The notes beneath the pieces are model-generated. The model was not told where the DNA came from. It made no database searches and worked only from the letters and a program-made list of their open reading frames with translations. A DNA stretch of 64,000 bases from NCBI RefSeq assembly GCF_016903815.1, contig NZ_CP069973.1, one strand, 5' to 3'. This DNA comes from Escherichia coli (GTDB lineage: Bacteria > Pseudomonadota > Gammaproteobacteria > Enterobacterales > Enterobacteriaceae). Position numbers and translations under genes: made by a program. Shown piece by piece: positions 12,242-12,880 of the stretch (positions are counted from its first letter, which is position 1; each line of letters opens with the position of its first letter).

Positions 12242-12658
12242 TTAAACCATCACCAGCGATAACTCTTTGCCAAGCGCCTTTGCCGCGAGCTGGACGGCGT
12301 CGATTTTTGTCGCATGGTGCAAATTAAATAGGCGAGTAATCTCCTGTTTAGGTTTGCCAATTCGTCTGGCTAACTCTTGCTGAGTGATTTCTGACTGTAA
12401 AAAAGCATTTAACAGCAATACCTTAGAGGCGACGCTCAAAGGCACTTCAATAAAGTGATCGTGACTATTTAATGGCGAAGGTAACGGGATAAGCTCGTTA
12501 TCTTCAAAATAAAAATCAAATGCGGTCAGTAAAGCATCTTTTGCCGCTTCCATCGCTTCAGCAACTGTTTCGCCCTGGGTCAACGCTTCAGGGATATCCA
12601 CAAAAGAAACCATATAACCGCCTTCCGGCGCGGGTGTAAGAGTGACGGGATAACGCAT
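12242..12658 (-). CDS. hicB: HicB antitoxin (type II TA)
   Basis: ORF track gives 145 aa from 12679; trimmed to internal Met MRYPVTLTPAPEGGYMVSFVDIPE... (138 aa); immediately downstream of hicA. Confidence 0.85.
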   Translation of the reverse strand: MRYPVTLTPAPEGGYMVSFVDIPEALTQGETVAEAMEAAKDALLTAFDFYFEDNELIPLPSPLNSHDHFIEVPLSVASKVLLLNAFLQSEITQQELARRIGKPKQEITRLFNLHHATKIDAVQLAAKALGKELSLVMV

Positions 12659-12703
12659 AATTTCGACTGTCTCTCGCATGTCATTAACCTTTTTAATTGG
12701 CGA

Positions 12704-12880
12704 TTAACTCAAACCGAGTTGTTTCAGGATTGCTTTACGCAATGGTTCTTTAATCTCATCGCAGGGGTGACGCGGCATGACACTGCGCCTCCCACGAAAC
12801 CTGAGTTTCAAATGGTTGCTGCCATTCGCTACATCGACGCCCTGAGATTCGAGCCAACGTCTGAACTCGCTTTGTTTCAC
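12704..12880 (-). CDS. hicA: HicA mRNA interferase toxin (58 aa, GTG start)
   Basis: Hand-translated: VKQSEFRRWLESQGVDVANGSNHLKLRFRGRRSVMPRHPCDEIKEPLRKAILKQLGLS; one codon short of the ORF track's 60-aa floor. Confidence 0.85.
   Translation of the reverse strand: MKQSEFRRWLESQGVDVANGSNHLKLRFRGRRSVMPRHPCDEIKEPLRKAILKQLGLS

Follow-up and report, generated by a model that had tools for sequence, protein, structure and literature searches.

The window, a 64,000-nucleotide stretch of DNA from Escherichia coli, almost certainly carries the chromosomal type II toxin-antitoxin operon hicAB of this species at positions 12242-12880, in intact form and at the site that the operon occupies in K-12, between ydcR and yncJ. 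The operon is already known and well studied, and nothing in this copy is new. Its biological weight is small: the genetics, biochemistry, and structure of E. coli hicAB have all been characterised, and the copy in the window differs by one apparently tolerated residue. The value of the finding is methodological. With a floor of 60 amino acids (aa) and a preference for ATG, an ORF listing misses a genuine toxin gene of 58 aa with a GTG start and displays a meaningless antisense ORF instead. To catch small toxin genes in such a stretch, the size floor has to be lowered or homology consulted.

The two genes and their locus

The toxin gene hicA lies on the minus strand (12704..12880, GTG start, TAA stop) and was recovered from a six-frame ORF list, in which this stretch encodes the 58-aa peptide MKQSEFRRWLESQGVDVANGSNHLKLRFRGRRSVMPRHPCDEIKEPLRKAILKQLGLS. 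The peptide matches the Pfam family HicA_toxin (PF07927) with 30.2 bits (E 4.7e-7), a score 3 bits over the curated cut-off of 27, as is common for a 58-aa protein, and residues 5-57 align to profile positions 3-58 of 58. At 57/58 residues the peptide agrees with K-12 HicA (b4532) and with chain A of PDB 6HPB, the crystal structure of the HicA-HicB complex, in the latter case over the full length, and it shares with both the catalytic His23 (...GSNH23LKL...). RefSeq annotates hicA (WP_001306887.1) at the equivalent position of strain 7/2, whose DNA is 100% identical. Because it passes the Pfam cut-off, matches a solved structure, and coincides with a RefSeq CDS of the same coordinates, the 58-aa ORF is not a chance ORF. 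Its predicted fold, taken from the full-length identity to 6HPB_A, is the small double-stranded-RNA-binding-like one.

The antitoxin gene hicB follows on the same strand. As annotated in RefSeq and K-12 it spans 12242..12658 and encodes 138 aa, and its stop, at 12242, forms the left edge of the interval. The ORF is open for 145 aa from an ATG at 12679 or for 138 aa from an ATG at 12658. Two Pfam domains are found within the 145-aa ORF: an N-terminal PF15919 (HicB_lk_antitox; 32.8 bits, cut-off 27) at residues 10-74 and a C-terminal PF01381 (HTH_3, an Xre-type HTH; 31.4 bits, cut-off 23) at residues 95-141. All 145 residues are the same as in K-12 HicB, and the protein is identical to the chains in PDB 6HPB_B, 6HPC, and 6U0I. 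In strain 7/2, RefSeq places hicB (WP_001270286.1) at the position equal to window 12242..12658. The identity of the two genes and their family membership are direct observations, and so are the synteny, the conserved start codon and SD, and the match of the leader to K-12 described below.

These results bear out an earlier note, which had read a hicAB pair from the sequence and hand-translated a GTG-started, 58-aa HicA directly upstream of hicB: the ORF list and the RefSeq and K-12 annotations agree with it on length, start codon, and placement, and the peptide does resemble HicA-family proteins, including the annotated hicA of K-12. The note had also attributed the absence of hicA from its ORF track to a 60-aa floor. 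The gene is indeed missed at that floor, which the 65-aa antisense ORF passes, but "one codon short" holds only when the stop is counted (59 codons); otherwise, the shortfall is two residues.

A scan of HicA and HicB with NCBIfam HMMs gave zero matches, and the RefSeq names evidently derive from another type of rule. PADLOC returned no match for HicA and only weak, HTH-level matches for HicB, and no Rfam family scored over its gathering score in 11800..13500.

The two genes form a compact unit in which the toxin gene comes first, with 45 nt between the hicA stop (12704) and the hicB ATG (12658). Synteny is conserved: the gene order ydcR-hicB-hicA-yncJ-rlhA is the same in strain 7/2 and in MG1655. 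Of the 5,426 complete E. coli genomes searched by megablast with 12100..13100, 5,415 contain the locus, and several of these, such as strain 7/2, are 100% identical. Past hicB, we detected no terminator-like hairpin. The 78-nt spacer between hicB and ydcR holds two overlapping sigma-70-like promoter matches (12187..12224, minus strand), a short distance ahead of the ydcR start at 12163. On the other side of the operon, the spacer between yncJ and rlhA contains a match to naRNA4 (13333..13372, minus strand) that is below the Rfam threshold (30.9 bits versus a gathering score of 59.5, E 0.0036); our guess is that it is a REP-type repeat. Further out, the rlhA (ydcP) ORF on the minus strand (13424..15427) opens with a GTG and encodes 667 aa, against 653 aa (1,962 nt) in the RefSeq and K-12 annotations, so that the first possible start is not the annotated one.

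Translation starts and overlapping reading frames

A Shine-Dalgarno (SD) sequence, GGAGG (12885..12889, minus strand), lies 4 nt upstream of the hicA start (GGAGG-CGAT-GTG). The start itself sits in an AUGUGA context (12877..12882, minus strand), in which an out-of-frame ATG (12882..12880) overlaps the GTG (12880..12878) and is followed by a TGA (12879..12877). The leader, the SD, and the GTG are base-for-base those of K-12, and they are invariant in an alignment of six diverged E. coli copies whose hicA sequences differ at up to seven nucleotide positions. K-12 hicA is included among the atGTG-starting genes in Table 2 of PMC9841429, with the SD GGAGG, a DtoStart (aligned spacing) of 12, and no predicted ambiguity; the same study reports that, at AUGUG sites with a short SD spacing, initiation takes place only at the GUG, and gives a very low protein abundance for K-12 hicA (0.021 ppm). 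Its atGTG-start list contains rlhA too.

Could translation of hicA initiate somewhere other than at the GTG at 12880? As a start codon GTG is the weaker choice, and the ATG that overlaps it lies one base upstream, yet this ATG is out of frame and runs directly into the TGA. The GTG is the first possible start past the upstream in-frame stop, and the only later in-frame starts, Leu24 (TTG) and Met35, would both remove His23. Moreover, the 4-nt distance to GGAGG is a spacing reported to put initiation at the GUG of AUGUG (PMC9841429), the Pfam profile aligns from HicA residue 5, and the crystallised chain comprises the full 58 residues and begins MKQSEF. We regard a different start as extremely improbable. 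The idea that one of two ORFs overlapping hicA is the genuine gene has next to no chance of being right either. These are a 65-aa ORF with a TTG start on the plus strand, antisense to hicA (12719..12916), and a 54-aa ORF with an ATG start in another frame of the hicA strand (12756..12920, minus strand). Both are open in the window, in K-12, and in LR14, but sequence identity here is about 98% between the E. coli compared, and the open state of either ORF therefore carries no weight. Neither ORF has a Pfam family or an annotation in RefSeq or K-12, and the 65-aa ORF, which the earlier note had rightly called spurious, has no SD visible upstream of its TTG. Apart from the changes at residues 29 and 40, the differences between alleles leave the protein read in the hicA frame unaltered, even a two-base change (AGG>CGA) that keeps Arg31, a pattern expected of a coding frame.

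The hicB start is less sharply defined. Starting at 12679 instead of 12658 would add seven codons (MRETVEI; 12659..12679, minus strand). The 138-aa form is used by RefSeq, by the K-12 annotation, and in PDB 6HPB_B and 6HPC, and the 145-aa form is used in PDB 6U0I. The seven-codon stretch shows no variation among the aligned E. coli copies. The Pfam match begins only at residue 10 of the long form, and plasmid-borne HicB homologues from other genera align in tblastn mostly from query residues 7-10 onward. Both the Pfam start and these alignments favour the 138-aa start, short of proof, and 12659..12679 is probably a 5' leader rather than coding sequence.

Control region and published mechanism

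The intergenic region between hicA and yncJ (12881..13101, minus strand) corresponds, by alignment to MG1655 and by the published description, to the hicAB regulatory region with the promoter P1 and its CRP-S site and the promoter P2. The MG1655 alignment shows no difference from K-12 between about 13058 and the hicA start, a run of about 180 nt ahead of the GTG, and whatever acts in the K-12 control region is therefore present in the window.

The published accounts of the mechanism, reviews and one primary paper (PMC11594946, PMC8138530, and PMC6957337), summarise the primary work of Turnbull & Gerdes 2017 and Manav et al. 2019, and we rely on their summaries. In these, E. coli HicA is an mRNA interferase that acts independently of translation with His23 as the key residue, and E. 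coli HicB is a fully folded antitoxin that covers His23 and represses the operon via its HTH (PMC11594946, PMC8138530). The RNase activity and toxicity of K-12 HicA and its neutralisation by HicB go back to Jorgensen et al. 2009, as cited in PMC11594946. PMC8138530 and PMC6957337, summarising Turnbull & Gerdes 2017, describe P1 as a promoter with a CRP-S site that has CRP and Sxy as its activators and drives both hicA and hicB. The same summaries place P2 next to the hicA start, where HicB represses it and excess HicA lifts the repression, and state that its short transcript yields HicB but no HicA.

Two sequence elements may correspond to P2. A perfect inverted repeat, GTAAACA-N4-TGTTTAC (12913..12930, no strand), was found by a repeat search, and its arms are the same in all aligned E. 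coli copies; it is a candidate HicB operator placed over the -35 region of P2. Between it and hicA, an extended -10-like element, TGATATACT (12899..12907, minus strand), ends 9 nt upstream of the hicA SD and is, judged by the published description of P2, the candidate -10 of this promoter. A transcript from TGATATACT would have almost no leader before the hicA SD, in keeping with how P2 is reported to behave. A consensus scan for two-hexamer promoters did not flag the TGATATACT site and gave no match upstream of hicA; it yielded three matches where 1.9 are expected by chance. One match, in the spacer between hicA and hicB (12684..12657), was treated as chance, as a transcript from it would begin after the annotated hicB ATG. 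For the CRP-S site of P1, a search of 12881-13083 with TGCGA-N6-TCGCA and up to three mismatches found no match, and the count over the whole window was under chance expectation.

With the leader, the SD, and the GTG all identical to K-12, the published mechanism should carry over to the window copy. HicA would be a small toxin that cleaves RNA through catalytic His23, without dependence on the ribosome. The N-terminal domain of HicB would cover the HicA active site, and its C-terminal HTH would repress the operon. Because the toxin gene comes first, the operon would have two promoters: P1, dependent on CRP and Sxy, would transcribe both genes, and P2, repressed by HicB and freed by excess HicA, would produce a short transcript for HicB only. 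The output of P2 would thereby top up the antitoxin when the toxin is in excess.

Allelic variation and comparison with known systems

Relative to K-12, hicA in the window has a single change, CAT>CGT, which replaces His29 by Arg (codon 12794..12796). In hicB, there are seven nucleotide changes, all synonymous, and a few more changes lie far upstream. R29 is a minority allele: among the 4,215 genomes with this part of hicA, 99 contain the exact 61-mer around its codon. Residue 29 is H in K-12, R in the window, and Q in ETEC1748 and CFSAN061770, and residue 40 (codon 12761..12763) is likewise variable among E. coli (C, N, or S). The same HicB, WP_001270286.1, accompanies different toxin alleles, as it is common to strain 7/2 (R29), ETEC1748 (Q29), LR14, and NADC1036; CFSAN061770 (Q29) has a variant HicB (WP_076611057.1).

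The toxin gene is often lost in E. coli, and the window carries the intact form. A hicAB query matched 5,349 genomes, 4,253 of which cover at least 80% of the query. In the remaining genomes, which include IHE3034 and an O127:H6 strain, only the last 239 bp of hicB are present, annotated as a pseudogene. Alignment to IHE3034 shows a 445-bp deletion corresponding to window 12480..12924, found in about 1,100 of the 5,426 complete E. coli genomes, which takes out the 5' part of hicB, the whole of hicA, the SD, the -10-like element, and half of the inverted repeat. A second common allele, compared in NADC1036, has a 22-bp deletion within hicA (window 12742..12763) between two TGCG tetranucleotides, leaving a frameshifted "mRNA interferase" pseudogene beside an intact hicB. 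This group, which includes NADC1036 and O104:H4 2009EL-2071, corresponds roughly to the 884 records in the band of 90-95% identity. Given how frequently other E. coli have an inactivated hicA, the toxin is evidently under weak selection.

This background gives some room to the view that the pair is hicAB but that the H29R toxin is attenuated or inactive and marks early decay of the module. The only hicA difference from K-12 is non-synonymous, its allele is rare (99/4215), and a large share of E. coli genomes have lost or frameshifted hicA and retain hicB or a remnant of it. Residue 29, however, is naturally H, R, or Q in annotated hicA alleles that are intact, the same HicB occurs in four of five strains compared, and in the window copy His23 and all other HicA residues are unchanged and the ORF, SD, and start are intact. 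We therefore consider attenuation improbable, and R29 is most likely neutral; from sequence, we infer that the allele is active. A different proposal concerns expression: a GUG placed 4 nt from the SD within AUGUGA, combined with a leaderless-like P2 transcript, might act as a throttle that keeps HicA translation far below that of HicB, in which case H29R would be a neutral passenger. The published catalogue (PMC9841429) predicts no start-site ambiguity for hicA, and we hold the start to be a throttle with only slight confidence. An ordinary, intact hicAB operon with a minority toxin allele remains the preferred reading.

The closest known system is hicAB of K-12 itself (b4532/b1438; PDB 6HPB, 6HPC, 6U0I), which has the same locus and synteny, a 100% identical HicB, and a HicA that matches at 57/58 residues; its GTG start, SD, leader, and inverted repeat are identical to those in the window. 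It differs by H29R in the window HicA, the seven synonymous hicB changes, and the few changes far upstream. The window comes from a non-K-12 lineage and is 100% identical to strain 7/2 and others in this region. More distantly, HicA3B3 of Yersinia pestis, HicAB of Burkholderia pseudomallei, and HicBA of Streptococcus pneumoniae share the family (PF07927/PF15919) with the window. Common to HicAB systems are a small HicA with a catalytic His, a HicB that combines a toxin-binding N-terminus with a DNA-binding domain, and a toxin gene that comes first, whereas the DNA-binding domain of E. coli HicB is an HTH and not an RHH. According to PMC11594946, the two-promoter scheme has been shown among HicAB systems for that of E. 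coli only. The decayed E. coli alleles (the 445-bp type of IHE3034 and the 22-bp type of NADC1036 and O104:H4) occupy the same chromosomal site with the same flanks as the window; they are without a functional hicA, whereas the copy in the window is intact.
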